This document shows positions 7,196 to 58,398 of a DNA stretch of 64,000 nt, piece after piece. Under the pieces are notes generated by a model. The model was given only the letters and a program-made list of their open reading frames with translations. It was not told the origin of the DNA and searched no databases. Numbering within the stretch: position 1 is the first letter of the stretch; each line of letters opens with the position of its first letter. The stretch lies in assembly GCA_965205015.1 (NCBI GenBank), contig OZ242029.1, positions 1,632,001 to 1,696,000 on the forward strand, written 5' to 3'. A program made the translations under genes and the position numbers. Source of the DNA: Candidatus Poribacteria bacterium (lineage in GTDB: Bacteria; Poribacteria; WGA-4E; WGA-3G).

Positions 7196-7199
7196 TCTC

Positions 7200-7229
7200 A
7201 TTATACCACACTTTCGGACCAAATGTCAA
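7200..7229 (-). promoter_or_regulatory. sigma70-type promoter of tnpB-2
   Basis: TTGACA-N18-TATAAT on the minus strand. Confidence 0.75.
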
Positions 7230-11652: not shown

Positions 11653-11658
11653 GGACGC

Positions 11659-11747: not shown

Positions 11748-11751
11748 GCTC

Positions 11752-11780
11752 ATTATACAATATTTGGGGCGAAATGTCAA
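11752..11780 (-). promoter_or_regulatory. Consensus sigma70 promoter of tnpB-3
   Basis: TTGACA-N17-TATAAT on the minus strand. Confidence 0.8.
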
Positions 11781-30394: not shown

Positions 30395-30652
30395 TTGTAC
30401 GTTGATGGAAAAGTAGATGGTGAGAAACCGAGCGGCGGTACGTTGGATACGAGCGAATCGCCTATCTGGATAGGTGCCCGTCCCGGCAATGTTGCGGCGA
30501 CAGGCCTCTTTGACGAAGTTGGATTCTTCACTGAGGCACTCTCTAAAGATCAACTCAACGATGTGCTGGAGAATGGGTTAGCCGATTATGCCGCTGTTGA
30601 GGCGGCTGGCAAATTAACAACAACTTGGGCTTTGCTGAAAGCAAAAAAATAA
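30395..30652 (+). pseudogene. 5'-truncated LamG-like jellyroll protein with C-terminal KLTTTW motif
   Basis: LYVDG...IGA...GLFDEV...AVEAAGKLTTTWALLK; no signal peptide or N-terminal half. Confidence 0.7.
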
Positions 30653-35824: not shown

Positions 35825-36499
35825 ATGAAAAAGTTGAATATCCAATGGGTTTACGCGTGCATTTGCTTGGGCTTTATGCTAATTGGGCACACCACACAGG
35901 CGATTCGTTATGAGTTTGATAGTGACAAGGAGATTGCCGATTGGGAGTTGGGACCCCAGGCAACCGCAAAGGTGAAAGACGGTATGCTTGAACTTACCGT
36001 TGCCGGTGGGCAGAATTCAGGTATCTACTTTGGGGAAGAAAATTGGACGGATTATCGCATGGAAGTCAAAGCACGAAAACTTGCTGGACCCTATTTCCAT
36101 CTGTTCGTTCGGACGCAAGAACCCGCGGTGGATTTCTATTTCATGGAGATCAGTTACAACTCACATACAACTTCGATTTTCATGTTTCAAGGCGGTGGCG
36201 CAAATGAGATTACCGGCGGTCCGCGCCCAAAACGTCCCGACTCAAAGGACACCAAAGGTGGTGATGCATATACCATCGTCTTTGAAATAGAAGGGGAAAC
36301 CCTCAGAACCTACATTGATGGAAAACTGATGGTTGAAAACCAAGATAAAACCTACGATAAAGGTCGTCCCGGTTTAGGCGGTAGGGATTCAACTGTTGCG
36401 TATGAATATGTTGAAATCAATGGTGAGGGTATCCCACCGACAGCAGTGGAACCTGCTGACAAATTGGCTACGCTATGGGGTGAATTGAAGCGTAAGTGA
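35825..36499 (+). CDS. Exported DUF1080/lectin-like beta-sandwich protein with C-terminal KLAT.WG motif
   Basis: Signal peptide, WTDY, YIDGK, GRPGL, AVEPADKLATLWGELK. Confidence 0.7.
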   Translation: MKKLNIQWVYACICLGFMLIGHTTQAIRYEFDSDKEIADWELGPQATAKVKDGMLELTVAGGQNSGIYFGEENWTDYRMEVKARKLAGPYFHLFVRTQEPAVDFYFMEISYNSHTTSIFMFQGGGANEITGGPRPKRPDSKDTKGGDAYTIVFEIEGETLRTYIDGKLMVENQDKTYDKGRPGLGGRDSTVAYEYVEINGEGIPPTAVEPADKLATLWGELKRK

Positions 36500-37500: not shown

Positions 37501-38267
37501 ACAAATTAGCATATCTTTTGGTGGCTGCAACGTTTTTGATGAGCTGTGTACTGGCGCATGCAGTCGATCCAGATAAGGATTTACTTATCTATTTACCTTT
37601 TGATGAGGGTAAAGGGAACACGGCGGAAGATGTTGGGCCTAATGGATTCGTTGGTGATATAAAGAACGCAAAATGGGTAGAGGGTGTCTCAGGTCAAGCA
37701 CTCCAATTTAAGGGTGGGAGTGTCAACTTTGATCCACTCAAAATTGATCAACCCAAGGAAATGACGATCGAATTCTGGTTCAAACCGGACGAGAAAATTG
37801 ACAGTGGCGCCCGAATTGATCTGCTCTATCGTTTGCAAGGTGGTGGACGACCTCATGTTACGTTCAATCGTGGTGGCATATTATTCGGATACTACTTTGC
37901 GACGCAAGGTGTGGAATTACCGATACACACGAATCATGATGCGTTTGAGCCGGAATGGTATTACTTCGTCGGGACGCAGACCAAACAGACTGGGTGGATG
38001 TATATTAACGGGGAGCTTGATAACGAAACGGATGCCGGTGGGGATGCCCGCATGGATTTCGGTACCCAAGGGATGTGCATCGCGGCGAGTCAGGGCAACG
38101 CCAACTTCTTCAATGGCATGATTGACGAATTTAAGATGTGGAGTGTCGCTTTCACTGCTGACGATGTCAAAGCCAGTATGGAAGCAACGCTTGCTGTGCA
38201 AGCGGAGGGTAAGTTGACAACGACATGGGGTAAGCTTAAATCGGGTTCTGATGGAATCAGGTTTTAA
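37497..38267 (+). CDS. LamG-like jellyroll protein with C-terminal KLTTTWG motif
   Basis: YLPFDEG, GQALQF, TIEFWFK, MYING, FNGMIDE, AVQAEGKLTTTWGKLK. Confidence 0.85.
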   Translation: MNKLAYLLVAATFLMSCVLAHAVDPDKDLLIYLPFDEGKGNTAEDVGPNGFVGDIKNAKWVEGVSGQALQFKGGSVNFDPLKIDQPKEMTIEFWFKPDEKIDSGARIDLLYRLQGGGRPHVTFNRGGILFGYYFATQGVELPIHTNHDAFEPEWYYFVGTQTKQTGWMYINGELDNETDAGGDARMDFGTQGMCIAASQGNANFFNGMIDEFKMWSVAFTADDVKASMEATLAVQAEGKLTTTWGKLKSGSDGIRF

Positions 38268-38285
38268 GCGTCTTACCTAACATGT

Positions 38286-41093
38286 CTACCGAATGAATGA
38301 GATATGGAGCGGACGGGTTGCTGAGCGGCCCTCCGCATCCACACAAGTTAACACATGCTTCCCTCTGGTAGGCGTAAGCCAGTATTGCTCTCCCGCGCTC
38401 CCTTGGAAAATTAACTCACCATCCAAAAACCAGAACAGATCCTGTGTCCGACTCGAAGCCGAGGCGGTCAATCGGATCTTTTGGTTTTCCAGCGGCACCC
38501 CTCCCCGAATGTAATAGATAGTGTTTTCTGCTGGAGATAAAATAATCGGAGCGTTCCCTGCAATTGTTCCGGTACACAAAGGGTTATGCTCGGGTAGAAT
38601 AGACACAGCAAAACCATTCTCTGCCAACCACGTCGCCGCATCGGCGGGCCACTCCTCAAATATGCGTGCTTCCGCTACAGATATGTCATCCCTACGGGGT
38701 TTCCTTTTAAGCACGCCAGCGGGGTGCGATGTCTGTAGCCCCAAATTCCCATAGTTAGGAATCCGACAGTGGGAGCAGAGACTGTATCCTGTTGTTTTGT
38801 CAACGTAGATGCGTTTATGAATTGAGCAGACCGCTACAGACGAGATACCCGGGATATACACATCCTCTTTATGCGTAGGACAGTGCGGTGAAACTGGTGC
38901 GCCACTCAAGGCACATACGTGTCGTGTTTTGATTTGTTCCGGCTTGGTAAACCAGCGGTGTGTGTCTTGTCCTGTTAAGGCAGTGAAGAGCGCGAATAGA
39001 ATCGGGGTTGCTGCATCTGTACCGCTCAGCATTGGCGTCCCTTTTCCATCGAAGTTCCCAAGCCATACACCGATTGTTAATGTCGGCGAGTATCCAATAC
39101 ACCACGCATCCCGATGTCCATAAGAGGTCCCGGTCTTCCACGCAATCTTCGGTAGGGTCATTGTCCTTTCAAAGGCTTCTGGATTTTTAACCGTGTTGGT
39201 AGGCAGTTGTGATTTTGTTAACATCTCGGTTATGATGAAGCTTGTCTCTTTTCGGAGTAAACGTTGCGTGAAATGGCTTTCGGAGCGTTCGCTGTGCTCA
39301 CTTTCGGCTGTCGGAAACCGTCGGTTAAGAGAGATTGAACGTTCAGATCCGTCTTGGGACTGACTGCTGATGGCTGATGGCTGATTGCCACTCTTCTGTT
39401 GGCTATTTCTTGGGAGGGTCAGTTGATAGGGTCCAAATTCTCCCATATTTGCCAACCCAGCATAAAGTGTTGTCAATTCAAGCAGATTTACTTCGCATCC
39501 ACCGAGAACCATAGAAAGTCCGTACTTTTGGGCAGGGGCGAGTGTAGAGATGCCAGCCTGTTTGAGGAAGGCGTGTAGTGTCGAACCCCCAACTCGTGCT
39601 GTGCGGTTTTCCAAGCGTGCCGTGAGATTAACGGCGGGAACATTGAGAGAACGTGCCAATGCCTGACGGGCAGTGACATAACCGTTATATTTTCCATCGT
39701 AGTTCACCGGCGTATAGTCAGCATGGGTAACAGGGACATCGAATAACAGTGTCTCCGGTGTAATCAAGCCCTCTTCCATTGCCAGTGCGTAAACGAAAGG
39801 TTTAAGGGCGGAACCGGGAGAACGCGGGGCGAGCGTCCCATTTATTTGTCCTAATGCCTTCCGGTCGAAAAAGTCGTGGGAACCTACCATTGCTAAGACG
39901 TGGCGGTTTTGGGTATCCATGACGATGACTGCACCTGTGCTGGTGCTATGAGACCCGCGCAAACTGGGTTGACGCTCTGCGTCCACCAGATATTCGTTAA
40001 GGATGCGTGCCGCAGTTTCCTGAACTTTCGTGTCTATTGTTGTGTATATCCTGCCATCTTTTGTTGATTTCGCAGACCAGCGGTTTTTCTTAACCAACAT
40101 CCGTGAGAGGTGGGGTGCTTTGAATGGAAGTGGGTGGCGTTTGTGCGGGATCGGTTCTTGAACTGCCTCTTGCCACTGCTGTTCAGAAATTTGTCGACGC
40201 GCCAGGAGCCGATTCAGGACTTTTTCACGTGCCTTTCGGGCGTTTTCTGGGAACCTGTCAGGTCGTAAACGTTCTGGGGCGTTCGGAATGGCGGCAAGAA
40301 GTGCGGCTTCCCCAAGGCTAAGGGCATGCTGGGGTTTGTTGAAGTAGAATCGCGAGGCTGCTGCTGTTCCGACTATATTTCCACCATACGGGAGCATGTT
40401 AAAATAAAACGCTAAGATCTCTGATTTGGAATAAGCATGTTCAAGTTGAACTGCGCGGAACATCTCGATGAGTTTGTTCGGAATGTTACGGGCTTTGGGT
40501 TCCATCAATCGAGCGAGTTGCATGGTGATGGTTGACCCCCCACGCACAACTTCACCCGCTCTCAAATTGTCATAGATGGCTGTTGCAATCGACACAGGAT
40601 TGATGCCATAGTGATAGTAAAACCACTTATCTTCTGAAGTTAGTATTGCTTGGTGTAGGAAATGGCTATCGGCCGTCGGTTGTCGGTTGTCAGTAATGCG
40701 TGTGGCAGGAAACATCGCTGTATCCTCCACAGCGTCTTCTGGTAGACTGGGGCGCAAGCCGCGTGTGGGAAACCTGCGGGACAATGCTGACTGCTGATGG
40801 CTGATGGCTATTCGCCACATGCCATCGTCAGCTAAAAATGCTCGAAGCCACTCACCGTTTCTGTCCAACACAATCTGAGATACAGGTGGATGGAGACGTG
40901 CTTTGGGTAACGGAAAACACCAGTTTGCGAGCATAAAGAGAGTCGCAATCAACAGGGGAGGGAATATGAAAATTATCAGTCTTCGGAAGAGAGGTTGCCG
41001 GTTGTCGGTTGTCGGTTGTCGGTTATAAGAGGGCCTTGTTAAACGAAAACCTCTTAACTGAAAACTGAAAACTGAAAACTGAAAACTCTTCAT
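38286..41093 (-). CDS. pbpC: Penicillin-binding protein 1C with several in-frame repeat insertions
   Basis: SEDKWF, GGSTITMQ, SPGSALK (SxxK), SLN, KTGT, C-terminal WFLDG; coupled to the alpha-2-macroglobulin gene. Confidence 0.93.
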   Translation of the reverse strand: MKSFQFSVFSFQLRGFRLTRPSYNRQPTTDNRQPLFRRLIIFIFPPLLIATLFMLANWCFPLPKARLHPPVSQIVLDRNGEWLRAFLADDGMWRIAISHQQSALSRRFPTRGLRPSLPEDAVEDTAMFPATRITDNRQPTADSHFLHQAILTSEDKWFYYHYGINPVSIATAIYDNLRAGEVVRGGSTITMQLARLMEPKARNIPNKLIEMFRAVQLEHAYSKSEILAFYFNMLPYGGNIVGTAAASRFYFNKPQHALSLGEAALLAAIPNAPERLRPDRFPENARKAREKVLNRLLARRQISEQQWQEAVQEPIPHKRHPLPFKAPHLSRMLVKKNRWSAKSTKDGRIYTTIDTKVQETAARILNEYLVDAERQPSLRGSHSTSTGAVIVMDTQNRHVLAMVGSHDFFDRKALGQINGTLAPRSPGSALKPFVYALAMEEGLITPETLLFDVPVTHADYTPVNYDGKYNGYVTARQALARSLNVPAVNLTARLENRTARVGGSTLHAFLKQAGISTLAPAQKYGLSMVLGGCEVNLLELTTLYAGLANMGEFGPYQLTLPRNSQQKSGNQPSAISSQSQDGSERSISLNRRFPTAESEHSERSESHFTQRLLRKETSFIITEMLTKSQLPTNTVKNPEAFERTMTLPKIAWKTGTSYGHRDAWCIGYSPTLTIGVWLGNFDGKGTPMLSGTDAATPILFALFTALTGQDTHRWFTKPEQIKTRHVCALSGAPVSPHCPTHKEDVYIPGISSVAVCSIHKRIYVDKTTGYSLCSHCRIPNYGNLGLQTSHPAGVLKRKPRRDDISVAEARIFEEWPADAATWLAENGFAVSILPEHNPLCTGTIAGNAPIILSPAENTIYYIRGGVPLENQKIRLTASASSRTQDLFWFLDGELIFQGSAGEQYWLTPTRGKHVLTCVDAEGRSATRPLHISFIR
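39271..39410. repeat. In-frame heptamer-flanked repeat insertion in pbpC
   Basis: gctgatg/gctgact arrays and a tcggctg/tcggaaa array; encodes NSQQKSGNQPSAISSQ...SESHF. Confidence 0.7.
40663..40812. repeat. In-frame heptamer-flanked repeat insertion in pbpC
   Basis: gtcggtt arrays at left and gctgatg arrays at right; encodes IAISHQQSALSRRFPTRG...TDNRQPTADSH. Confidence 0.75.
40990..41090. repeat. Heptamer-array palindromic element forming the pbpC N-terminus
   Basis: (ggttgtc)x4-like array 40993-41020 and (aactgaa)x4 41056-41083 flanking an aagagg/cctctt stem. Confidence 0.85.
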
Positions 41094-44000
41094 TATTCTG
41101 CAACCACTGCGATACGCATGCTACCCGTTACAGCAGATTTTGTTGTATCGTACATCGCCTCGGCGGCAATAGGGGGTAAGGTGAATTCACCTTGTGTGAC
41201 GGCGCGTAGCGCGTAATAGAATTTACGTTCGCGTTGACGTGGGAACGTACCGAAAAAGATGAGCCTGTCATCGCGAATATCAATATAATCCGGTTTGAAA
41301 TCCTGGGCTTTCAACCATGAAATACCCTCTCGGGATTCTAATCGCGGGTTCTCAATTTCAAATCCTGTAGGCAACATATCAACGACAACAACGTTTTCGA
41401 GATTGGCGGTGAGGGCTTTGACGTTTACCTCAGCGATGATCAGTTCCCCATGTGTGAAGGTGCCAGTACGTTCTTCACCGTCCTTGTTAAAATAGCGTCT
41501 ACGCACCTGAAGTTCGCGTTCATATTCTTCGATGAAGGAATCACGTTGGATGCCAAACGCGCTCCAATAATAGTAGCAACTGCCTTCACCTTTAACAGAG
41601 AGCTGGACACGCATCCCGTCCCATGCTGGATCGGTGTGACAGATCTCCGTTGCGTCGAAGTTGGCGAAATGTTCACCGTTGAGCGTCAGGGTACCGGTGT
41701 AATTTCTGTCCATCTGTTTCTTCAGGATCTTGCCGAGTGCCAAAAATGCAAAGGCGTTTTCTTGTGTTGTTGCCCATCGGTTCCCGTCAGATGCTGCCTC
41801 ACTTAGATTTTGGACGAGCATCGGGATTGACGGGTGGTTTTCGTTAACTTCCGCAAGAACGTCTAACATGATGGCTTGGGCTCGAATGGGGGAATCAAGC
41901 GTCCCGCCTGTCTGGCGTTGTCCGTTGCCCTTATTAAAATTGGGTGATACTGACACCGGTAGCATTGACAGGGCAGTTTCCAGTTCGCCACTGAGGGCGA
42001 AGGCTCCTGCGAGTTGAAAGTGGCTATAATCGCTGAGTCCACTCAAGCCTCTGTTTTTCAGATAGTGCATCGTGCCTCGGTCGGGATGTCCAGCAGCAGC
42101 TAAGACATAAGCAGCATAGGTTGCTAATGAAATCTTTTTTCGTATCTCTTGTGCTTCCCCAAGCGAGCTTCTAAAGTCGTCTTCCGTGTTTGGCGAGAAT
42201 TTCGCCTCTGTTTTTAAACCTTCCAGCAGTGCGTCGTAAACCCGGTCTGATACCTCATAGCCCGCCTTTCGTGCCTCGACGAGGAAGTGAGACGCATAGA
42301 TACTGCTCCATGGGTTCACGTAAGTGCCACCGGGCCAATAAGCGAAACGGTCATCTGACTTCAACATACTTTCGATTTTCGTGATACCCGATGTAATATA
42401 GTGGTCCACTGAGTCTTCTGCTGCCAGCATCGGTTCGACACTTCGCGCCAAGTCGCTGAAGTAAAGCAGCGGAAAAACCTTGCTCGTTGTTTGTTCCAGA
42501 CAGCCGTGCGGGTAACGTATAAGGTAGCGGAGACTGTCCGCAAACCTGATATTTGGGAACGGCGATAACGTGAGACTAAACTCTGACGAATCGGGTATTA
42601 AATTCGACGGGAGAATAAAGTCAACAGATTCACCTGCGCGTACCACTCCTTGCCCAGTTTGTGTGACAGGTGGAGCGACGGAACGCAGTGGGATTTTTAC
42701 ATCTAATTGTGTTATTTGTGCGTTACCGTGTGCAGAAAGATTGAAGTTGGCTTCCCCGATTGCATCCTGAACGAGAATATCGAAAAAAACTTGTGCCTCT
42801 GTACCTGCGTCGACCCGCTGGTCTATACTGAGTTTGTCTACTGTATATTGGCTATCGGAAACCAGCGGAAACTGTTGGCTTTCAGCAGAGGGGGGCTTTT
42901 GCTGATCGCGACGCAAGTCTCCGCGTGTGGGAGACCTACGGGACAATGCTGATGACGGATCGCTGACACCTATTGCTGAAAGGAGTTGCACGTCGCCTGA
43001 TGCTTGCAATTCGACCGTAAATTCCCCTGCCGCACCCGTGCCGTTAAAGAGGGTGACCGGTACACGCACCTTATCACCACCTGCGAGGAATCGGGGGAAT
43101 GTTGGTGTTAAGACAATGGGTTCGCGGACGGTCAGATACGCTTCCGTACTGCCGTAATCACCACCCGCGAATGCGACTGCCATCAACCGCAGTGTTCCAT
43201 TGAACTGTGGAATCTTGAATTGAGCAGTCCCGCGACCGTTTCCATCGGTTTTCACGAATCCCGACCAGAGTGAAATTGGCTTTACTCGCTGGATGCTGCC
43301 TGTGCTCAATCGCTTCCGTAGTGCTGCCTGCCGTGTCGTGGCTGCATCTCCCCCTGTACTTGAATTGTCGGTGACATTTGCGATTTCGGGGAGGATCCCA
43401 CTATACAGGTCGAAGGAGCGCGTCTTAAGCCCGCGCTGTCGATAGAAGTAGTCGTGTGGGTTGGGTGTTTTGAAGTCGGTTAGCGCGAGGATCCCTTCAT
43501 CAACAGCTGCGATACAAACATCATATTTTTGCCAAGAACGTCTCCCGTGGACTTGAAACGCTATCGTCACTTCGCTGTTCGGTAGGACTGTCACTCCTTT
43601 AGAGTCGTCAGTTTTCAGTTTTAACCATTCACTCGTGCGTTGCTGTCTTGTATCGGAGTCGAGTGGATGGTTAAGGTTATCAGTTAAGGAGGAATTTTGT
43701 CTAACCAAACCATCTGTTAACTGCTGACCGTTAGCTGACAACTGAATCGAAAGTCGCCGTCGTGTTTCATCTATCTTGAGTGGAATTACGCCAAACGCGC
43801 GCGCGGGGAGAGGCGACTTCTTATCCGTCACGGTTCCTTCCATCGGGATGGCGCGTATTAACGTCGCGGAGAGATACACATTCGGTCTATAGGCGTACCG
43901 GACTGGAATTGATAAAGTTGTGGTGTTATTTTTCATCACGATTGTCCGGTAACTCAACACCTTTTCGCGTTCGACCGTCAGCAGGAGTGTGCCCGGGAAC

Positions 44001-46888
44001 GGTGCTTTAACATATAGTTTTGCTGTTTGTCCCGGATGGTAAGCAGGCTTGTTAAGCGTCAGTTCCAGTCGAGTCGGATGTTCCATAGAAACTGGGATGT
44101 TTCCCCATCCGCTAACGTAAAATCCGAGTTCTGCAGTCGCTGTTGAGGTGATGTCCTCAAGACGGACGCGGTATTCACCATAATCTGAGGGCGTTAAGGT
44201 CACCGTCTGCACTGTTTCTGCTGAAGTTAATGTAACCGTTTCCACTTCTGTTGTTTGAGGTTCAGAGACGTACGCGTAACGCCCGGCACCGTTCTGACGG
44301 AGTATCGTATTCCAATGGACTTTATGGAGGCTTAGTTTTAGGTCTCTCCCGGGTGCAACTGCCATTGCATCGTTAACAGCAATGTAGTCGAATCGAAGGG
44401 GTTGGTTAATTTTTACGTCCCCGGTCTTTGTCTGTCGAAGTCCAACGTAATGCGAGTACGGGTGTATCACAACTCGATGAGAAGCGGTGACGGATCTGCC
44501 ACCGGCTTCACTAACAGTCGCTGTCAGGGTGCCGTTTAGCAGAGAGGGGGCTTTCAGCGTTTCGGGAATCGTGAATTGATAGGACGCTTTGCCCGCTGCG
44601 TCAGTTTTCGCTTCTCCCAATCCGATTCTTTGTTTTTCAAAATTGGAGCGGGCATTCCCGAAGACAAACGAGTTCCACTGTGTTGCACTTGCGCTGAGTG
44701 CTGAATTGACAAACGAAACTGCTTCCAATTCACAAGAGACTTCCACCTTGCGACCGACTGCTGGGGGTCCGAATAGGTTAATAGCGGAGACTTCAATGCC
44801 GAGTTCCTCTCCAAGCTTATAGGTAGATTTATCCGCTGTTACAGCGACTTTTATCCGATCGGGCATAAATTCTTCAACCTGAAATTGGACTCTTCCAACG
44901 ACGCGATCCGCGATCCGCATCTTAGCAATATAGTTACCAGTCAGGGCGTAGCCAGGGATCGGAATTTGCATATCGCAGGCACCGTTTTTGTTTGTTTGCA
45001 GCCTTAACTCTCGCATGATTCTACCGTTTGGGGAGAGCACTTCAATCCGGGCGGGAAGCGGTTGCGGTGTTACCTGCTTTGGTCCTCGAACAATTCCAGC
45101 AAGTTGGACGGTTTCACCCGGGCGGTAGACCCCTCTGCTGGTGTAGAGAAAGGCTTCATAACCTTTTTGCAGGTAGGCAGAGCCAGCGATGTTGAAGTCT
45201 GCTGTCGCGATTTCGTGCCGGTTGAGTTGAATGAAGGCGAGATCGTCCCGTTTCGCGACGGTGATCATAAACGGTGTGAAGTCTTCTGTCTTCTCCGCAA
45301 CATCTGTGAACTCGACATGCCCTGCCCAGTTGGTTCTTCCTTCGAGGAGTGTCTGGTTATTATCACTGATAAGTTTGACGTGCGCTGCTGGTACGGGCGA
45401 GCCAGTGGCGAGCGATTTCACCCAAACGTATAGTCTGTTTTCTGTGCGTTTGGCACTGATCCCCAAATCTGTAATGAGCACCCATTGATGTGCACTATCC
45501 CACTCCCTCTCTGCGTTTCGCGCCACAACCTTGAAGATACCGACGTGTTCATCTGAGAGGTATTCTTCCAAGGAGATAGGGGTTGTTCCCTCTTCGTTCA
45601 ATTGGGAGGGGATATCAAGTTCTTCTGTATGAATGGATTTACCTAAGTTTCTGCTCCAGCGACTCCATTGTTCTAATTTCGATACATAGATAAGATTGTT
45701 CGCAAAAACTTTTTCAATACTGAGTTTCACGCGTTTAACGTTAATTGTTGCCAGACCTAAGTTCAGGTGCCCTTTTCTCGCGAGGAAGAAGCCGTCGCCG
45801 AGAAACCGAAGTTGGGGGCGGATATCCGGGATTTTCAGGCGCGTCATGTAATCTTGTTTTAAGACGGCATCGTTTCGGGCTGTGAGACCCCGCCGAATCT
45901 TCAGCGTGTAGGTAGTACGCCGTTTGAAGTTGCCGTGAATCTGCACGTTTCGATAGTCGGATGTCACCTGATAGGCGACTGCGGGTGTCAGTTCTATGTA
46001 CGGCTCAATGGTATTACTGAGTACCGGTGCACTGAAACTCACTGAGATATAGGGCGTTCCATCGCTTTCCCAAACGTCAGCGTATGTTACACCGAGTGTT
46101 CCGCGCCCTCGGAGTATTACGGGTGTAACGCTCGCTTTTACTAAACCTATTTTCCCACCCGTACATTTGAACCCTTTTTCAATCTTAATCTTTATTTCTC
46201 GGTCTGCAGTGCCGCGTTTTATGCGTTTTGTCTCGAATGTTACCGTCCGTGCTGTTGCTGTATTGGTTTGAATCTGGTATGGAATTTCTGTCTCGTCGTC
46301 CAGTTCAATAGAGAGGTGTGCCTTTAAATCGACAATGGTTACCGGATAATTAAATGCTATCGTGCCGAAACCTGTTGCGTGTTCACGGGCGTCATTGGCG
46401 GTAAATTCCATGCGTGCTTGCTGCACTGCGAAAGGATCGGTAGCAAATTTAAACTCTTTTTGTCCGGTGAGTAGGAATGTCTCAGAAGGGTTGAGTTCTG
46501 GGGTGAGTTGAACAGTATATTGTGCGGAGGGGGCTAAAGGTGCATCTAAAAAGAAACCGACTCTATCGCGCGCGATCCAACGTGCACTGCCTTGAACGGC
46601 GGGCGTAAACCGAAGGGCTTCTGCTGGAACTTCGGTCCCGACGCGCGACTTATCAATAATTGCCTCCGAGAACGTAATCGAAAAATCGACCCATTGTGGA
46701 ACCTCACCTTGTGGCGTGAAGGTTTTGACACTGTATCGTGTCTTGGCACGCACGCTCCCTTGGACAATGTAGAAGATACAGGCAGCAAGGAGTAAGGACA
46801 TCAGTCCGATCACGCCGATTAAGCTTTTTAAGAGCAAATTTCGATTTCCAGATTTCGCCGAAAAATTTTTGGAGAGTTTGGCCACCAT
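41093..46888 (-). CDS. Bacterial alpha-2-macroglobulin
   Basis: RGVYRPGE, VEEFMPDR, AVDEGIL, PQFNG, thioester motif YPHGCLEQ, DIRDDR, AEAMY. Confidence 0.95.
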   Translation of the reverse strand: MVAKLSKNFSAKSGNRNLLLKSLIGVIGLMSLLLAACIFYIVQGSVRAKTRYSVKTFTPQGEVPQWVDFSITFSEAIIDKSRVGTEVPAEALRFTPAVQGSARWIARDRVGFFLDAPLAPSAQYTVQLTPELNPSETFLLTGQKEFKFATDPFAVQQARMEFTANDAREHATGFGTIAFNYPVTIVDLKAHLSIELDDETEIPYQIQTNTATARTVTFETKRIKRGTADREIKIKIEKGFKCTGGKIGLVKASVTPVILRGRGTLGVTYADVWESDGTPYISVSFSAPVLSNTIEPYIELTPAVAYQVTSDYRNVQIHGNFKRRTTYTLKIRRGLTARNDAVLKQDYMTRLKIPDIRPQLRFLGDGFFLARKGHLNLGLATINVKRVKLSIEKVFANNLIYVSKLEQWSRWSRNLGKSIHTEELDIPSQLNEEGTTPISLEEYLSDEHVGIFKVVARNAEREWDSAHQWVLITDLGISAKRTENRLYVWVKSLATGSPVPAAHVKLISDNNQTLLEGRTNWAGHVEFTDVAEKTEDFTPFMITVAKRDDLAFIQLNRHEIATADFNIAGSAYLQKGYEAFLYTSRGVYRPGETVQLAGIVRGPKQVTPQPLPARIEVLSPNGRIMRELRLQTNKNGACDMQIPIPGYALTGNYIAKMRIADRVVGRVQFQVEEFMPDRIKVAVTADKSTYKLGEELGIEVSAINLFGPPAVGRKVEVSCELEAVSFVNSALSASATQWNSFVFGNARSNFEKQRIGLGEAKTDAAGKASYQFTIPETLKAPSLLNGTLTATVSEAGGRSVTASHRVVIHPYSHYVGLRQTKTGDVKINQPLRFDYIAVNDAMAVAPGRDLKLSLHKVHWNTILRQNGAGRYAYVSEPQTTEVETVTLTSAETVQTVTLTPSDYGEYRVRLEDITSTATAELGFYVSGWGNIPVSMEHPTRLELTLNKPAYHPGQTAKLYVKAPFPGTLLLTVEREKVLSYRTIVMKNNTTTLSIPVRYAYRPNVYLSATLIRAIPMEGTVTDKKSPLPARAFGVIPLKIDETRRRLSIQLSANGQQLTDGLVRQNSSLTDNLNHPLDSDTRQQRTSEWLKLKTDDSKGVTVLPNSEVTIAFQVHGRRSWQKYDVCIAAVDEGILALTDFKTPNPHDYFYRQRGLKTRSFDLYSGILPEIANVTDNSSTGGDAATTRQAALRKRLSTGSIQRVKPISLWSGFVKTDGNGRGTAQFKIPQFNGTLRLMAVAFAGGDYGSTEAYLTVREPIVLTPTFPRFLAGGDKVRVPVTLFNGTGAAGEFTVELQASGDVQLLSAIGVSDPSSALSRRSPTRGDLRRDQQKPPSAESQQFPLVSDSQYTVDKLSIDQRVDAGTEAQVFFDILVQDAIGEANFNLSAHGNAQITQLDVKIPLRSVAPPVTQTGQGVVRAGESVDFILPSNLIPDSSEFSLTLSPFPNIRFADSLRYLIRYPHGCLEQTTSKVFPLLYFSDLARSVEPMLAAEDSVDHYITSGITKIESMLKSDDRFAYWPGGTYVNPWSSIYASHFLVEARKAGYEVSDRVYDALLEGLKTEAKFSPNTEDDFRSSLGEAQEIRKKISLATYAAYVLAAAGHPDRGTMHYLKNRGLSGLSDYSHFQLAGAFALSGELETALSMLPVSVSPNFNKGNGQRQTGGTLDSPIRAQAIMLDVLAEVNENHPSIPMLVQNLSEAASDGNRWATTQENAFAFLALGKILKKQMDRNYTGTLTLNGEHFANFDATEICHTDPAWDGMRVQLSVKGEGSCYYYWSAFGIQRDSFIEEYERELQVRRRYFNKDGEERTGTFTHGELIIAEVNVKALTANLENVVVVDMLPTGFEIENPRLESREGISWLKAQDFKPDYIDIRDDRLIFFGTFPRQRERKFYYALRAVTQGEFTLPPIAAEAMYDTTKSAVTGSMRIAVVAE
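42845..42980. repeat. In-frame repeat insertion in the alpha-2-macroglobulin gene, homologous to the pbpC insertion
   Basis: 42922-42953 ccgcgtgtgggagacctacgggacaatgctga matches 40759-40790 at 30/32 positions. Confidence 0.8.
43600..43746. repeat. In-frame heptamer-flanked insertion in the alpha-2-macroglobulin gene
   Basis: tcagttt arrays, ttaagg/ttaa core and gctgac arrays; encodes SANGQQLTD...LKLKTDDS. Confidence 0.65.
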
Positions 46889-47173
46889 CAGAAGTGCCTC
46901 CTCTGCAAGGCAAAGATACTTAAATTCCAAGCAATTTCTATAAGCAATTTTTATGCCAATTGAACTTTGGTTCTTATGTTAACGTAGATTGCCACTTTGT
47001 AGCATAAACTGTAAGTTTGTGAAAATGTCTTTAAGTGACGTTATGTGTAAATATAAACACATAGGGACGGATGTGGCGATCCGCCCCTACACGTGAAGGG
47101 TTTTTAAGTGTAGTATTTGCGCCAAAACTCGTTCTGAGTAGAATTGAGTACTTTGATGCCAGCGTAAAAGCCT

Positions 47174-52561: not shown

Positions 52562-52600
52562 ATGGCGGGGAATCAGGGGTATCAAGTTGTAGACCTCTGG

Positions 52601-53425
52601 GATCCGCTACAAGATTTCCTGTTTTGTCCGATTGGTACCCAGTTATCTCTTAAGTGTTTTAGGAAAGGGCAGTTTGAAAACTAATATCTAACGTGCGTGA
52701 AATTCACGCCACTGATAAATATCTAACGAAACAAGGAGAGACTCATGTCGATTACGAAGTTGCAAAATGGCGGCGTCGAGTATAAAATCCGAGTGAAGTC
52801 TGGGGATTTAGCAGCCAAAGGTGAAGGGATGATGAGGATTGTGCCTGCGACTGATGGGCAATTCTCGGTCAACGTGTTATTCCCCAATGAAACGGGTACG
52901 CTGCAGCCTTTAGATTTAACCGCCGTGGAACGTGTCGCATTGGTGGAGAGAAAAATTGGCTGGTTTGGCAAGAACCAATGGGTAAAACCTCTGGTGATCA
53001 CAGCAGGTAATTTCATCGGGGTTCCGCTCGTACTTGACGCGCTTGTAGGTGGTATCCAAACTGCTGGTGAAGCAATTCAGATGCTTGCCGGGGGAACTTT
53101 TATGGCTACTACCTATGGTACTGGGGTTTACACAGGGACGAGACTCACGCGCTTGGCAAGATTCATTCTCACAACCGAAGATGAGAAGCATGCCGTTTTG
53201 GAAGGTTCTGAGAACGCTTTCTGTTTTCTGGATGGTGTGTATACGGCGCCGAACATTCAATTGGAAGAGGTAGCATCTGAAATCCCGGAGGCGCCGGCAG
53301 CAGATGAAGCCTCTGAGGCACCGGCAGCCGATCCTACACCGGCACCGGCTTAAGGGACAGAATCTACGAGTGGGGCTTCCCGCCTCACTCGTTGGCTTTG
53401 GAAGGAATCAAAAATGCGTCTCTTT
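52601..53425 (+). repeat. Duplicated cassette copy 1 (leader, gene, hairpin and start of the next gene)
   Basis: Colinear with 54851-55649 over long identical stretches. Confidence 0.92.
52745..53353 (+). CDS. Small membrane protein with a Gly-rich hydrophobic insert (family member 1)
   Basis: RBS AAGGAG; near-identical paralog at 54994. Confidence 0.8.
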   Translation: MSITKLQNGGVEYKIRVKSGDLAAKGEGMMRIVPATDGQFSVNVLFPNETGTLQPLDLTAVERVALVERKIGWFGKNQWVKPLVITAGNFIGVPLVLDALVGGIQTAGEAIQMLAGGTFMATTYGTGVYTGTRLTRLARFILTTEDEKHAVLEGSENAFCFLDGVYTAPNIQLEEVASEIPEAPAADEASEAPAADPTPAPA

Positions 53426-53878
53426 AAAGAGCCGAACTTTCCGCTCGATGTACTTAAAGGCACAGCCGCACCTCTCGGCACGGGACACGCCTTCTGTATC
53501 CGAGAGGACCCGAATATTGGGCTCCACGGCTGGTTCAAATTTGTGAGCAACAGTCAGAGGCAACAGTTGGCACTGACAGACGTATCCCGACTTGAGATGT
53601 CTCGGGGTATGTTGGAGGTAAATCCTCGAAAATGGGCGGCACCTACAGCGGTTGCAGCGCTGAGTCTTTTCACCCCATTACCTGCGTTTCTGGAATTCGT
53701 TGGAATTGCAGTTGCAGCGGTGTCCAGTGGTTTCACGAAAACGCGTGTGCGTTTCGTCTGTGAGACAGTCGGGGGTGATCATTTTACGGGGAGTCTTTCT
53801 CTAACGGGTTTCGTTGCAGCGAGAACCTTGTGGCAGAAACAGGGAGAATCTCGGTTAAACCCGATGTTCCTAAATTAA
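53414..53878 (+). CDS. Small membrane protein (family member 2)
   Basis: LALTDVSRLE...hydrophobic hairpin...VRFVCET. Confidence 0.7.
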   Translation: MRLFKEPNFPLDVLKGTAAPLGTGHAFCIREDPNIGLHGWFKFVSNSQRQQLALTDVSRLEMSRGMLEVNPRKWAAPTAVAALSLFTPLPAFLEFVGIAVAAVSSGFTKTRVRFVCETVGGDHFTGSLSLTGFVAARTLWQKQGESRLNPMFLN

Positions 53879-54026
53879 CTATAGTTTGGACAGTTGTAGC
53901 ATAGGAGACCGTTGGTCTCCTGTGCATCACTATCCCCGATTTTTGTGAGAGTGCCTCGCGGAAATGCAACTGAAAAAAAATAAACTCGGAAACGGAAGCG
54001 AGGGTTCCTCCAGATGGAGGCGAACG

Positions 54027-54476
54027 ATGGAAAAGACACAGCAATCCACACAAGAGTTCCGCGTGAAGGTTATCCATGGAAATTACCAAAAAGGGCGGAG
54101 ACACTGGTTTCGCGTGACGGTTCTCTCCGAGGATAAAATCCACGGGCGTTTTGAGATGAAAACGGAGAAAGGGGACTCGGAAACCCTTGAAATGGAGGCG
54201 ATCGTCAGGTTTGAACAGACCACGAGCGGCAAATTCAGGGTAGGCGACTGGATGATGCACTACTTGCTGCCGCATTCGGTGTCAATGTTAGCGGCGAGTG
54301 CCTCTCTGGTTGATTTACAAGGCATGGAGCTGGCATCACGAAATGTCCGGTTTGTGTGTGCCACAGAGAATAAGTATTTCTGTGGGGAGATAGCACGAAA
54401 CGGTTTCCGTTTAGCACAAGCGTTGATCCAGCAGACAGAACAGGCAGATGCGGTAAAGTCAGGGAATTTCTGCTGA
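54027..54476 (+). CDS. Small protein (family member 3)
   Basis: RBS GGAGG; LEMEAIVRFE...VRFVCAT. Confidence 0.7.
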   Translation: MEKTQQSTQEFRVKVIHGNYQKGRRHWFRVTVLSEDKIHGRFEMKTEKGDSETLEMEAIVRFEQTTSGKFRVGDWMMHYLLPHSVSMLAASASLVDLQGMELASRNVRFVCATENKYFCGEIARNGFRLAQALIQQTEQADAVKSGNFC

Positions 54477-54482
54477 CTTGTT

Positions 54483-54740
54483 CTATGCCTCACCGGTTTC
54501 ATCTCGGACACATCGAAAGCCGAGCGACATGTTCGTTAACATTCTTGTGTTCCCATTTCGTTGAAAAACACGTAACGTTTGGTACCAATCTGCGTAGCTT
54601 CCACCTCGGGACACTGCGTGGCTCCGCGGATTGATGCCTTCAAAGTTCTCTACTATCCATTGAAGGTTCTGCTTTGTCGCGACCGGATTTTTAAAAGGTG
54701 AGTTCTCATAGAAGTAGGGTTCGTAGTCATCAAGGCACCC
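54483..54740 (-). pseudogene. C-terminal fragment of an FGE-sulfatase (SUMF1/C-type-lectin fold) protein
   Basis: WEGCLDDY..YFYENSP.KNP...SRGGSY...LGFRCVR; the N-terminal part is missing next to the duplication junction. Confidence 0.7.
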
Positions 54741-54850
54741 CTCCCATCTGAACGTGCGATGAATCGCACTACTATGAACTGGCCCGCTTGTAGTGGGGCA
54801 ATTCATGGTTCTCCCGTCGATTACCGAAATATTTTCTGAAACTTCATTGA

Positions 54851-55649
54851 GGTCTGCTACGAGATTTACCGTTTTGTCCGATTGGTACCCGGTTATCTCT
54901 TAAGTGTTTAAGAAAAGTCAGTTTGAAAACTGATATCTAACGTGCGTGGACTACACGCCACTGAGAAATATCTAACGAAACAAGGAGAAACTCATGTCGA
55001 TTACGAAGTTGAAAAATGGAGGTGTCGAGTATAAAATCCGAGTGAAGTCTGGGGATTTAGCAGCCAAAGGTGAAGGGATGATGCGGATTGTGCCTATGAC
55101 TGATGGGCAATTCTCGGTCAACATGTTATTCCCCAGTGAAACGGGTACGCTGCAGCCTTTGGATTTAACCGCCGTGGAACGTGTCGAATTAGTGAAGAGA
55201 AAAATTGGCTGGTTTGGCAAGAACCAATGGGTTAAACCGCTCGTCGTTACAGCGGGGAATTTCATCGGGATGTACATCGCGGCGCCGTTCGTAATTGGCG
55301 CATTCAGTGCTCACATAGCTGAAGCAGCAATGCTCGTCGGGGGTACTTTCGTTGCGACAACTTATGGTGCTGGCGTGTATACTGGCTCGAAACTCAATCG
55401 CTTGGCAAGATTCATTCTCACAACCGAAGATGAGAAGCATGCCGTTTTGGAAGGTTCTGAGAACGCTTTCTGTTTTCTGGATGGTGTGTATACGGCGCCG
55501 AACATTCAATTGAAAGAGATAGTCCCTGAAACCTCTGAGGAACCGGCAGCCGATCCTGCACCGGCACCGGCTTAAGGGACAGAATCTACGAGTGGGGCTT
55601 CCCGCCTCACTCGTTGGCTTTGGAAGGAATCAAAACAATGCGTCTCTTT
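54851..55649 (+). repeat. Duplicated cassette copy 2
   Basis: Colinear with 52601-53425. Confidence 0.92.
54994..55575 (+). CDS. Small membrane protein (family member 4, duplicate of 52745)
   Basis: Near-identical N- and C-terminal parts with a divergent hydrophobic centre. Confidence 0.8.
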   Translation: MSITKLKNGGVEYKIRVKSGDLAAKGEGMMRIVPMTDGQFSVNMLFPSETGTLQPLDLTAVERVELVKRKIGWFGKNQWVKPLVVTAGNFIGMYIAAPFVIGAFSAHIAEAAMLVGGTFVATTYGAGVYTGSKLNRLARFILTTEDEKHAVLEGSENAFCFLDGVYTAPNIQLKEIVPETSEEPAADPAPAPA

Positions 55650-55896: not shown

Positions 55897-58398
55897 ATGA
55901 ACACCCAATCCCACGAGGGACACACCCCCGATACTTCCATTGATCTGCGAACCGGACGCGTTGAGGAAACGATACTTGAAAATCCGGAACTCGTCCAAGC
56001 AATTGAGAGCCACCTGCCCGAGACGGTCCCTTCCCAAATTGACCGTTTCATCCAGCAGTACCTCCGATTAGAACATCTGAAAGCGTTCTTGGCGGCGACT
56101 CCGACTGCCAAGGAGGGTTTTGAAGCCTTACTTGATAAAGCCACGCGTGCCCTCTCATATCAACGTCCGTATCGGATCGCCTTGGTTGGCCGGACGGGTG
56201 TTGGGAAAACGCAAGTGCTGAATACCTTGGTCGGTAGAGAACTCTTAGCCAGTCAGCAGGGACAACCCGTGACCGGCGCTATTACGGAGATTTTCCAAGA
56301 CGCTTCTGAAGGCGAAGAGCGGGCAGTGATCCAGTACAGAGATATGGGAAATATCCGCAGACTCATCCAACAGGAACTCATTGAGCGGTTTGGGTTAACC
56401 AACGCGGATTTAGGGATGCCAGATGAACTGAGTGAAGAATTTGCTACGACGCTTCGAGAGATAGAACCCCCTTTGGGCAATGATCCCGAACGCTTTAAAA
56501 ATGTGCAAACCGCACTTGCAAATGTGATTGATCAGTATCTTCGTTTCAAAGATGCGGATGTGCCGACAGAATTCTCCTTGGCAGATAAGGATGCGTGTGC
56601 GGAACTTAATTCATTGATTACCGAGAACAGCGAACGGAATCAGGATGAAAACACTCGGATAGTCGGGTTAGTCCACTCGGTTGCTTATTACATTCACGGC
56701 GACGTTCATCAGGAAATCGTGCCGGAACTGCAGCTGCCACGGAACACCTGCCTTGTTGATCTGCCCGGTATTTCAGGGGCACCCTTGCACGACATCATTA
56801 TCACTGAAGGAATTCAGGACGCCGATGCCGTGGTGTTCATCGTGAATCCGAAGCGGGTGGGTCAATCAGATGAAAAGGCATTGGTCGGTCGGATTCGAGA
56901 GGCTATCAGTCTGAATGGCGAGCTGGATGCTGCAGAACAGATTTTCCTTGTTCTCAATGCGATTGATGAAAGTGCTGTTGACCCGGAACGCATGGATAGG
57001 GCACCGATGCTGGAGCTTGCGCGTGAATTGTACGTCGACGCTGGAAAAATGCCGAACCGAGATGGCGATGTCCCGTATTTTGAGTTGTCTGCGTTGGCGG
57101 CATCTTTGGCGCGGGTCCAGTTGCAAGGCGGCACGCTTAGCGACCCACGCAAATATGCGGCTATCGTTCAAACCCTCGCCCCCGATGCGGTCCTCGAACG
57201 CGCGGGGACGGACGCTGAGATTGACCATCGAGCGGTGTTGGCAGGGAGTGGCATCTCAAAATTGGTCACAGCCCTGAACGATTTTGCTGGCACACGCGTT
57301 GCGAAACAGATTCAGACTGCCAACGAGGCGATAACAAAGATTGTGAACCGCCTTATCAGTCAGTATCAGATGCAAGTCGCCTCAAAGTCTTCAAAAATCA
57401 GTGGAGACTTTGAGAGTCGCGATGAGGAGAAGCTCGTTCAACGGTGCCGCGAACTTGAAGATTTACTCTTAACCTTTCGGAATACACAACTGAGGAATAA
57501 GGCAGATTTGACGAGCGAGTTACGCAATCAAGCCAATACACTGTGCGACGGTGTTGACGCAGCCGTCCGGGAACAACTGCCGCATCTGTGGAAAAAAAAT
57601 GTTGCCCGGGATACAGACGTCGTCCGTGCGGTGTCGTCTTATACGGTTCAAGCGCGACAGTTGGTTTCGGAGGTTGAGGCGATGGTCTGGTCGGAGTTGA
57701 CCTTCCGACTGAAGTATCTTGCCACCTCGCTTGTGGATCATTATGAGACTGTGTTTGCAGCGGATGCGATGCAAAAGCAGTTGATTGACGGGAGTTACGG
57801 GCATCCTTTGGCGATGGAAGCGTTTGGAGACACCGCGATCGCGGCACTTTCCTCAGAGATGCGGCGCGGTTTGGAAGAGTTCAGTGAGCGGTTAATCGTG
57901 GCGTTTATTCCGGAGCCAGCGTTCCGTTTCATTTCACCAGGGCAAGACGCAAGGCTCAAGACGAAATCTGCACGCGGGAACCTGAGCGGTTTACCGAGAC
58001 TCCCGAAAGCACTGACCCCCATAAATGGACACAAAAACGGAGGAAAGGTTTTAGCTACCTCTGATGACTTGATGGCAATAGTGGCGCGGATTCCACCGAC
58101 ACCTTATGTCGAACCGAGCGTTTTTGACCCGTTTGTTCAAGCGGTGCGTGAACGTTATGCGTCTGTGGTGCTGGTTAACGGCGTAAACGCACTCGTCAAT
58201 GTGTATGAATACGAGATGTTGAAAGCCGAGCGATCCCTCCATACGAACATTGAGAAGTTATTCCGGCAGTTCCGGGATACGCGACTTTCGGATCCGGCGT
58301 TGTTTGAGCGTATGTTGAGAGATACAACCGATCTGACGGCGCGTCAGGAGATTAACGATCTGAATATGAAAATTGCTGAACTCTCTGAAATACAGTAA
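55897..58398 (+). CDS. Dynamin-like GTPase
   Basis: G1 GRTGVGKT, G2 PVT, G3 LVDLPG, G4-like LNAID, long helical C-terminus. Confidence 0.8.
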   Translation: MNTQSHEGHTPDTSIDLRTGRVEETILENPELVQAIESHLPETVPSQIDRFIQQYLRLEHLKAFLAATPTAKEGFEALLDKATRALSYQRPYRIALVGRTGVGKTQVLNTLVGRELLASQQGQPVTGAITEIFQDASEGEERAVIQYRDMGNIRRLIQQELIERFGLTNADLGMPDELSEEFATTLREIEPPLGNDPERFKNVQTALANVIDQYLRFKDADVPTEFSLADKDACAELNSLITENSERNQDENTRIVGLVHSVAYYIHGDVHQEIVPELQLPRNTCLVDLPGISGAPLHDIIITEGIQDADAVVFIVNPKRVGQSDEKALVGRIREAISLNGELDAAEQIFLVLNAIDESAVDPERMDRAPMLELARELYVDAGKMPNRDGDVPYFELSALAASLARVQLQGGTLSDPRKYAAIVQTLAPDAVLERAGTDAEIDHRAVLAGSGISKLVTALNDFAGTRVAKQIQTANEAITKIVNRLISQYQMQVASKSSKISGDFESRDEEKLVQRCRELEDLLLTFRNTQLRNKADLTSELRNQANTLCDGVDAAVREQLPHLWKKNVARDTDVVRAVSSYTVQARQLVSEVEAMVWSELTFRLKYLATSLVDHYETVFAADAMQKQLIDGSYGHPLAMEAFGDTAIAALSSEMRRGLEEFSERLIVAFIPEPAFRFISPGQDARLKTKSARGNLSGLPRLPKALTPINGHKNGGKVLATSDDLMAIVARIPPTPYVEPSVFDPFVQAVRERYASVVLVNGVNALVNVYEYEMLKAERSLHTNIEKLFRQFRDTRLSDPALFERMLRDTTDLTARQEINDLNMKIAELSEIQ

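Follow-up and report, generated by a model that had tools for sequence, protein, structure and literature searches.

In-frame translated palindromic repeats are rare and are best known from Rickettsia. We asked what kind of repeat interrupts two adjacent genes of a Candidatus Poribacteria bacterium, and how their reading frames accommodate it. The stretch analysed, referred to as the window, comprises 64,000 nucleotides (nt) of contig OZ242029.1 (assembly GCA_965205015.1, positions 1,632,001 to 1,696,000, forward strand), and the two genes encode a penicillin-binding protein 1C (pbpC) and a bacterial alpha-2-macroglobulin (A2M). An earlier inspection of the letters alone (the sequence-only reading) had described inserts built of 7-mer arrays and palindromes in both genes and had proposed a family of miniature mobile elements that creates new peptide loops. 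Our analysis indicates that the inserts are probably non-autonomous, hairpin-forming DNA repeats of a Poribacteria lineage, which have become established at permissive sites, six in pbpC and two in A2M, and are translated there. It also adds three features to the earlier picture: the inserts are composites of heptamer arms and nested hairpins, the arms are asymmetric with respect to TCAG and CCGA, and pbpC holds a degraded sixth site at 39582-39605.

Two conserved genes host the inserts

The host genes lie next to each other on the minus strand:

41093-46930, minus strand: A2M of the YfhM/ECAM type, an open reading frame (ORF) of 1945 amino acids (aa) that hosts two insert sites
38286-41093, minus strand: pbpC (penicillin-binding protein 1C), an ORF of 935 aa that hosts five insert sites and one remnant

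At their junction stop and start codons overlap as TAATG. For A2M, the ATG at 46888, preceded by GGAGG, is the likelier start, as the sequence-only reading had assumed; A2M residue numbers below are those of the longer ORF and so include 14 residues more. The pbpC product contains the Pfam domains Transgly, Transpeptidase and BiPBP_C and the motifs EDKWF (aa 154), SALK (428), SLN (482) and KTG (653), so that the three domains and the catalytic motifs of a PBP1C are all present, and its best relatives are annotated as penicillin-binding protein 1C of Candidatus Poribacteria. The A2M product contains bMG3, MG2, bMG5, bMG6, A2M_BRD, A2M and bMG10, matches Salmonella A2M 4u48 (E = 4e-104) and carries the thioester motif CLEQ at aa 1477; the MG series, bait-region domain, thioester and neighbouring pbpC of a YfhM/ECAM-type A2M are likewise all present.

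For comparison, 97 PbpC orthologues were aligned from the best 120 relatives listed, with 23 near-duplicates left out. These orthologues are 72-93% identical to the window PbpC and 805-992 aa long, and the PbpC motifs are invariant among them. The motifs SxxK, SxN, KTG and CLEQ, which the sequence-only reading had called intact, are all present in the two products. A scan of genome contigs furthermore yielded 16 Poribacteria loci with pbpC (15 of them with A2M upstream) and one Bacteroidota locus; loci are denoted by L numbers. The order A2M-pbpC is kept in the 15 Poribacteria loci whose sequence extends beyond the pbpC start, L008 starts within pbpC, and every complete gene in the loci is intact (14/14 pbpC and 15/15 A2M). 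Outside the inserts, the ratio of non-synonymous to synonymous substitution (dN/dS) was 0.06-0.11 for pbpC and 0.07-0.15 for A2M, i.e. 0.06-0.15 in every pair compared, which is not the pattern of decaying genes. Thus, both genes are intact, functional and under strong purifying selection.

Inserts occupy fixed hotspots in both proteins

The inserts, numbered by the hotspot (HS) in which they lie, and a related intergenic array are as follows:

40990-41090, minus strand: pbpC N-terminal element; (TTTTCAG)x4.6, a core hairpin, (CGACAAC)x4.6
40662-40811, minus strand: pbpC HS2 insert (aa 95-144); CCATCAG-type left arm, the module core32, a second hairpin, CCGACAA-type right arm
39582-39605, minus strand: pbpC HS4, remnant of a pal54-family hairpin; reads RTARVGGS, with 30 nt of the 54-nt element deleted
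39273-39398, minus strand: pbpC HS5 insert, within the transpeptidase domain (aa 566-607); CCATCAG arms followed by CCGANNN arms that are degenerate
38676-38747, minus strand: pbpC HS6 insert (aa 783-806); a heptamer-free palindrome, GCTACAGA...TCTGTAGC, earlier described as a 'REP pair'
43583-43732, minus strand: A2M HS1 insert (aa 1067-1116 of the A2M product, P0002); heptamer arms, with the module pal54 nested in the right arm
42845-42985, minus strand: A2M HS2 insert, which contains core32 at 42921-42952
1693-1718, plus strand: short intergenic heptamer array of GCAGTCR units, between an M14 peptidase gene and an insertion sequence (IS)

Compared with distant orthologues, these segments are insertions. 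In an alignment with a Bacteroidota PbpC (33% identity, 766 aa), window aa 96-137, 570-608 and 783-806 are unmatched and 7 extra residues occur at about aa 495-501. Against Salmonella A2M 4u48, window aa 1067-1116 (~50 aa) face ~5 residues, leaving ~45 extra, and aa 1319-1425 face ~65 residues, leaving ~42 extra. The inserts reported previously at 40663-40812, 39271-39410 and ~38670-38740 of pbpC and at 43600-43746 and 42845-42980 of A2M therefore fall at gaps against distant orthologues, their coordinates correct to within a few bases, and the Bacteroidota PbpC and Salmonella A2M do not share them. The remaining insert, at 40990-41090, corresponds to a variable N-terminal tail of 0-64 aa among the orthologues; in the window this element reads SFQFSVFSFQLRGFRLTRPSYNRQPTTDNRQP ahead of the membrane anchor and is presumably translated.

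Among the 97 orthologues, all length variation of PbpC is confined to six hotspots (aa 1-40, 97-145, 332-344, 497-504, 566-605 and 777-807 in window numbering), which range from near-empty to 45-64 residues; HS2 spans 2-47 aa, HS5 0-45 aa and HS6 2-61 aa. Even the four closest relatives of the window PbpC (92-93% identity) bear unrelated inserts at HS2. The A2M genes of the loci have two hotspots, the same as the two sites noted earlier in the window, and the HS1 site is variable in all 16 loci. Aligned to solved PBP1a and A2M structures, the inserts fall in gaps, and the position of HS5 is that of a variable segment in 4oon. Judged from the alignment gaps, the inserts may occupy loops; an AlphaFold2 model of PbpC, computed from the alignment of 97 sequences, was too poor to use (mean pLDDT 39.2, pTM 0.30).

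Small hairpin modules recur at unrelated sites and in different frames

Two small hairpin modules, pal54 and core32, were located at the following positions:

43621-43674, minus strand: pal54, located in the right arm of A2M HS1; a hairpin of 54 nt whose stem has 15 bp and whose 24-nt loop is conserved
40759-40790, minus strand: core32 copy in pbpC, a small hairpin that reads SALSRRFPTRG
Further copies of core32: L005 1598-1636; L001 1549-1598 and 7342-7374; L004 12318-12360; L006 12446-12480

Relatives of pal54 were found in the pbpC N-terminal region (L006), pbpC HS4 (L004, L005, L006 and L014), pbpC HS5 (L003) and A2M HS1 (L011), and also in intergenic DNA of L016, where the module has the opposite orientation. 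In an alignment of the 13 loci that match the anchors around HS4, nine sites are empty, three are full (L004, L005, L006) and that of the window is a remnant; L014, outside this alignment, is also full. The empty site reads AAAAAC/GTC/ACACT and lacks flanking heptamers. The same module is read as LNHPLDSDTRQQRTSEWLK in the window A2M and as NSPPIQDSKARVGGST in pbpC HS4, that is, in different frames.

The stem of pal54 is kept by compensatory changes. In an alignment of nine copies, 91% of stem cells are paired and 8 of the 15 pairs change on both sides; the covariation score was reached by 0/500 shuffles, and sliding the partners by 1-3 columns left at most 45% paired, although the nine include four orthologous copies, and the structure had been derived from these same sequences. 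Furthermore, the copies at HS4 have CGAACC..GGTTCG where others have TTAACC..GGTTAA: an in-frame TAA is lost and the pairs are retained.

The second module, core32, is a 33-39-nt hairpin (CGCAGGTCTCC, loop, GGAGACCTGCG). Its copies at 40759-40790 in pbpC and 42921-42952 in A2M match at 30/32 positions and both encode SALSRR(F/S)PTRG, just as the sequence-only reading had stated, and no such match arose in 100 shuffles. Besides pbpC HS2 and A2M HS2 of the window, core32 occurs upstream of ftsY (L001, L005), in A2M HS1 (L001, L012) and in pbpC HS6 (L004, L006). Again the reading differs by frame, with SALSRRxPTRG in the window and (D)IVPQVSHTRLA in A2M of L001 and L012. The copy at 42921-42952 is absent from the 15 other loci, and in a DNA alignment with the nearest allele, L007, A2M HS2 of the window carries ~39 extra nt directly after TCAGCA. 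This hexamer stands directly 5' of core32 in 5 of the 7 copies long enough to show the 5' junction (an eighth match, in L011, is a 17-nt fragment outside this count) and may be either a target preference or part of the module. Other modules recur as peptides at different hotspots, namely GETPKQKHP, RRGEVTSPLQGFR, FYPSTRAFVNVEDEL and VGTGNVIQGMDSVYPQTESP.

Together, these modules show clean presence or absence at orthologous sites and occur at non-homologous ones. They act at the DNA level, as the frame in which one module is read varies from site to site. The earlier proposal of a miniature-element family that makes peptide loops is borne out in these respects.

Heptamer arms are inverted repeats purged of stop codons

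The second layer of the inserts consists of tandem heptamers. In the window, 35 positions had at least 13/14 matches at a lag of 7 nt, compared with only 0-2 at lags 5, 6 and 8-11. They form six period-7 arrays, five in pbpC and one at 1693-1718, with which TRF agrees; the intergenic 7-mers noticed earlier at this position are thus a genuine lag-7 array, and they match a pbpC arm of L012 at 93%. Across the 16 Poribacteria loci and the window we counted 58 period-7 arrays, or 56 once two runs of N are set aside, whereas periods 5, 6, 8 and 9 gave 2-8 arrays. Array density was 0.93 per kb in pbpC (42 in 45.2 kb), 0.077 per kb in A2M (7 in 90.5 kb) and 0.027 per kb elsewhere (7 in 256.8 kb).

The heptamers differ between the two ends of an insert. 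Counted at intervals of 7 nt along the coding strands of 33 genes, TCAG occurred 97 times and CTGA 11 times, and CCGA occurred 45 times and TCGG never; left (5') arms are therefore NNNTCAG and right (3') arms CCGANNN. On the plus strand of the window, CTGAn3CTGA occurred 11 times, against a simulated mean of 1.3 (maximum 5). NNNTCAG and CYGANNN arms are mutual inverted repeats. Three successive CTGANNN units place TGA in every frame, and the change of T to C, giving CCGA, removes the stop, whereas untranslated copies (L015 8708-8738, L016 9846-9874 and L014 13680-13820) retain CTGA units. Because CTGA has been changed to CCGA, the arms can still pair through G.U on the antisense strand only.

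In three window inserts the antisense RNA fold was significant and more stable than the sense fold: the N-terminal element (-38.0 kcal/mol, z -5.8, vs -19.9, z -1.8, for sense), pbpC HS2 (-74.8, z -5.7, vs -45.7, z -2.7) and A2M HS1 (-53.9, z -5.4, vs -39.2, z -4.2; sense DNA z -4.0). None of 200 shuffles reached the antisense fold in any of the three. HS5, HS6 and A2M HS2 fold weakly (antisense z -1.4 to -1.9; sense z +0.4, -1.3 and -2.7): HS5 has z -1.8 antisense and +0.4 sense, and HS6 forms an 11-bp outer stem with z -1.3 to -1.9. Thus, the design of an array, a core and an inverted array, previously ascribed to most inserts, stands for three of six and not for the three with antisense z between -1.4 and -1.9. 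Sense-strand DNA folds are weak in 5/6 window inserts. Among 58 inserts from all loci, the antisense fold was more stable in 52, and antisense z was lower in only 35. We rejected universal palindromy, as z is close to 0 for many of the orthologous inserts; some copies are thus clear palindromes, whereas in others the palindrome has eroded.

Copies outside pbpC and A2M

Relatives of the repeats also occur outside the two genes. Those of the N-terminal element at L014 13695-13769 and L015 20123-20178 lie outside any ORF of at least 100 aa, and those at L013 12582-12626 and L016 21968-22002 are located in the 5' part of stop-to-stop frames of 154-160 aa. In L015 and L016 the equivalent of the N-terminal element, between A2M and pbpC, is untranslated. 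An orthologous intergenic repeat at L015 20100-20240 and L016 21940-22080 contains a pal54-family hairpin in L016 only; in addition, the L016 left arm is three heptamers (21 nt) shorter, and 21-nt steps therefore occur outside coding sequence too. In the window, the intergenic array lies 35 nt outside the left end of an IS (1753-3112) that carries a DDE_Tnp_1 transposase gene (1899-3044, plus strand) between perfect 21-nt inverted repeats (1753-1773 and 3092-3112).

A third host protein was found in a word-indexed search of longer proteins with the A2M insert, in which 2/6 candidates matched, a PbpC and a BamA-like protein. The latter (Omp85 and POTRA domains) contains 45 residues with 69% identity to the A2M HS1 insert peptide, pal54 included, located between the signal peptide and the first POTRA domain; this insert is known from the protein sequence alone. 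The predicted N-terminus of this protein (P0124, aa 1-30) is NSYQLSVIGYRL, a heptamer-arm peptide that precedes the signal peptide, which suggests that gene callers included an upstream repeat in the ORF.

Insertion, slippage or exchange

The inserts have two layers, tandem heptamer arms and small hairpin modules nested in or beside them. Under the reading that we regard as likely, that of mobile, non-autonomous hairpin repeats, a trans-acting enzyme that handles single-stranded hairpins would be the likeliest mobilising route, and heptamer arrays may serve as landing pads for the hairpin modules. Once in place, inserts would turn over through slippage by 21 nt (7 aa) at a time, through nested insertion, through internal deletion and probably also through recombination of alleles.

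The lengths of the hotspots fit such 21-nt steps. At HS2, 28 of 81 unique variants fall in one class modulo 7, HS3 lengths cluster at 19/26/33/40/47, and HS4 lengths at 6/13 and 23/30, although the variants counted are non-independent. Mapped on a core tree (FastTree, 627 core columns, 97 PbpC sequences), HS2 arm type changed at least 21 times (mean with shuffled labels 32.5) and presence of pal54 at HS4 at least 10 times (shuffled mean 27.7), and the frame-a peptide of pal54 required 7 changes for its 9 carriers.

Several observations weigh against mobility. Comparisons of filled and empty sites revealed neither a target-site duplication nor clear element termini. Among the 44 window ORFs there is no Y1 transposase, although they include three TnpB genes and one DDE transposase at 1.9-11.7 kb, and in a BLAST comparison of both genes with the rest of the window and the locus flanks the modules showed no similarity to IS or TnpB ends. 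A link of the modules to the window IS elements was rejected, the sole similarity in the rest of the window being the array at 1689-1716. The elements are heavily concentrated in one gene, which is unexpected under random transposition; 49/56 arrays lie inside pbpC or A2M. The whole-palindrome fold is significant in only 3/6 window inserts, and mean z over the 58 inserts is -1.1 (sense) and -1.7 (antisense). The state changes counted on a FastTree phylogeny of close relatives could reflect recombination of alleles rather than repeated insertion. Finally, evidence for further host genes is thin, consisting of one BamA-like protein: a word-indexed search with the pbpC HS2 insert gave 11 candidates, of which only the window PbpC itself and one PbpC orthologue matched, and the 46-aa A2M insert gave one match at E <= 0.001 among 1.84 billion protein representatives, to an unrelated, internally repeated 482-aa protein, although a 46-aa query is underpowered in a library of this size and such protein-set searches are weak for short queries.

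A more far-reaching version of mobility is that the hairpin is selected even within coding sequence, and that a Poribacteria-specific system with heptamer landing pads handles the modules as single strands or antisense RNA and continuously remodels loops of PbpC, A2M and BamA. This possibility arises because the TAA-removing change at HS4 occurred on both arms and kept the pairing, and because stop removal in the arms was always from CTGA to CCGA, which keeps the antisense-only G.U pairing. We consider it unlikely; if true, the repeats would form a class of mobile DNA that is new, compatible with coding and served by an enzyme of its own.

Also unlikely is an origin without transposition, in which old simple-sequence tracts slip and the modules spread by ectopic gene conversion or recombination between heptamer tracts. 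Such an origin would account for the 7-aa (21-nt) length steps, for hotspots at fixed positions in all 97 orthologues, for the lack of target-site duplications and of a linked transposase, and, through allele exchange, for the many state changes on the core tree. However, slippage does not create 15-bp perfect palindromes, and the discrete modules, with their conserved loops and covarying stems, also stand at heptamer-free sites such as pbpC HS4. Nor would it readily explain intergenic copies in both orientations or the A2M insert peptide in a BamA-like protein.

Inserts are kept open and evolve nearly neutrally

All 58 inserts are free of stop codons in the frame of the host gene, in line with the earlier statement that the inserts keep the reading frame, whereas only 15 of 116 off-frames are open. 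Stop-freeness in all frames was rejected as a property of the repeats, both off-frames being open in 0/58. Since only the host frame is open and CTGA is replaced by CCGA in the right arm, we infer that the inserts are translated as part of PbpC and A2M.

Insert dN/dS was 0.30-0.95, with 0.80, 0.94, 0.94 and 0.30 in four of the close pbpC pairs; in more distant pairs the alignments partly join non-homologous inserts. Thus, the inserts must remain open and are otherwise close to neutral, and this near-neutral evolution suggests that the Ser/Gln/Asp/Arg-rich insert peptides are tolerated loops and not functional domains.

These values bear on the idea that the loops are adaptive, the repeats diversifying exposed envelope proteins, e.g. 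as protease baits or for escape from recognition. All three hosts (PbpC, A2M and BamA) are envelope proteins, allelic diversity at the fixed sites is extreme and turnover on the tree is rapid. However, dN/dS of the inserts (0.3-0.95) is never clearly above 1, intergenic copies exist, and the A2M inserts lie outside the bait region, which makes this idea quite improbable. The E. coli ECAM bait region is Arg923-Leu942 (PMC4498604); it maps to about aa 1165-1213 of the window A2M, which is not a hotspot. A2M HS1 was accordingly rejected as a bait-region change, since it lies ~60 residues before that region.

Phase variation, in which gain or loss of one 7-nt unit would switch pbpC or A2M off and on, is suggested by tracts within ORFs whose unit length is not divisible by 3, one of them 6 nt after the pbpC start codon. 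This too seems very improbable, as out-of-frame alleles occur in 0/29 complete genes of the loci, length differences favour 21-nt steps and the tracts are short (2-5 units). Least credible of all is an explanation close to the alternative raised by the sequence-only reading (removal or bypass at the RNA level), namely that the inserts behave as intervening sequences or inteins and are taken out before the protein is complete, or that ribosomes bypass them: several have strong hairpin potential, but the host frame is open in 58/58 against 15/116 off-frames, the stop-forming TGA units of the arms have been purged, Pfam shows no intein or other extra domain, and Rfam gave no gathering-score match in the window, with one chance-level microRNA match (E = 0.15) in 38200-47000.

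Relation to known repeats

In function, the closest analogue of the Poribacteria repeats would be the Rickettsia palindromic elements (RPE; Ogata et al. 2000, 2002), as these are summarised in a review of MITEs, which are miniature inverted-repeat transposable elements (PMC10969869). To the extent of that summary, both are dispersed palindromic repeats of ~100-150 bp that lie in frame within unrelated conserved genes, leave the host ORF intact, add a peptide segment to the host protein and have intergenic copies too; several dispersed palindrome copies and in-frame insertion into conserved genes with the ORF kept are indeed found here. Unlike RPE as summarised there, the Poribacteria elements have tandem-heptamer arms and smaller nested hairpins, a module is read in more than one frame so that no single conserved peptide marks a family, copies cluster at few fixed hotspots in one gene pair, and the host belongs to a free-living or sponge-associated phylum instead of being an obligate intracellular alphaproteobacterium. 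The likeness is one of organisation.

In form, the repeats would be closest to the STRR heptamers of cyanobacteria and the small dispersed repeats (SDR) of Nostoc, reportedly described by Mazel in 1990 and by Elhai and colleagues in 2008. STRR and SDR are mostly intergenic, and SDR modules measure 21-27 nt. Common to both systems are tandem heptamers with hairpin potential and tiny mobile modules nested in heptamer tracts and other repeats, and tandem 7-nt units in excess over other periods are present here; in contrast, the Poribacteria units are based on TCAG/CYGA, the modules measure 33-54 nt and most copies seen are translated.

REP and REPIN sequences, which RAYT transposases mobilise, lie outside genes, are tagged with GTAG or CGTC and require a RAYT gene. 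They resemble the present repeats in being short, many-copy palindromes with covarying stems and some inverted pairs, whereas most Poribacteria copies are intragenic, no GTAG or CGTC tag was seen in core32 or pal54, and the 44 window ORFs include no Y1 transposase. As far as the review (PMC10969869) describes them, intragenic MITEs (ERIC, BOX, Anabaena MITEs) are likewise small non-autonomous repeats, sometimes in ORFs and adding peptides; those are sporadic, whereas here eight sites in two adjacent genes are occupied clade-wide by repeats with stop-purged arms. Inverted heptamer arms (whole-insert hairpin z -5.4 to -5.8 in 3/6) and a size of ~70-150 bp agree with MITEs; a target-site duplication was lacking, as was a parent IS with the same ends in the window and locus flanks. 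The frameshifted alleles of contingency loci were likewise not seen among the 29 complete genes. Because the repeats depart from MITEs in the target-site duplication and from REP/RAYT in location, tag and linked transposase, we place them as a variant form of coding palindromes, outside any named family.

Our literature search found no published account of such repeats in Poribacteria. In-frame coding palindromes have so far counted as peculiar to Rickettsia. Poribacteria, a distant phylum with large genomes, would add a second case that is independent and built differently, and would show that small hairpin repeats can routinely become protein sequence. The ~100 alleles of one gene would constitute a natural experiment on how such repeats are tamed (stop purging, 21-nt steps, compensatory stems), which protein sites tolerate them and how fast they turn over. 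The inserts also inflate and fragment Poribacteria protein alignments and could mislead annotation and phylogeny.

Other features of the window

The window also contains three TnpB genes (OrfB_IS605 and Cas12f1-like TNB domains) at 3599-4564 (plus), 5889-7100 (minus) and 10540-11652 (minus), with no TnpA nearby. Two of them share 85%-similar upstream ends (7098-7213 and 11650-11765), a palindrome-carrying 22-nt repeat occurs at 3400-3421 and 11702-11723, and HEAT-repeat genes (4483-5844 and 7488-8792) adjoin them. At least four window ORFs that otherwise differ from one another share a conserved C-terminal peptide, KL(T/A)T(T/L)WGxLK (12687-12724, 30593-30630, 36443-36480 and 38193-38230); the peptide also terminates genes beside intergenic repeat copies, downstream of pbpC in L004-L006 and L014, and may be a sorting or anchoring tag. 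A tandem duplication of ~2.25 kb (87-97% identity) occupies 52590-55635, and its ORFs 52745-53353 and 54994-55575 have no Pfam match. Farther along, an ORF at 58483-60804 (minus) encodes an Hsp70/MreB-like ATPase with WD40 repeats and contains a perfect 42-nt (14-aa) tandem duplication at 59595-59678; it is flanked by two dynamin-family GTPase genes, at 55897-58398 (plus) and 60828-62609 (minus).

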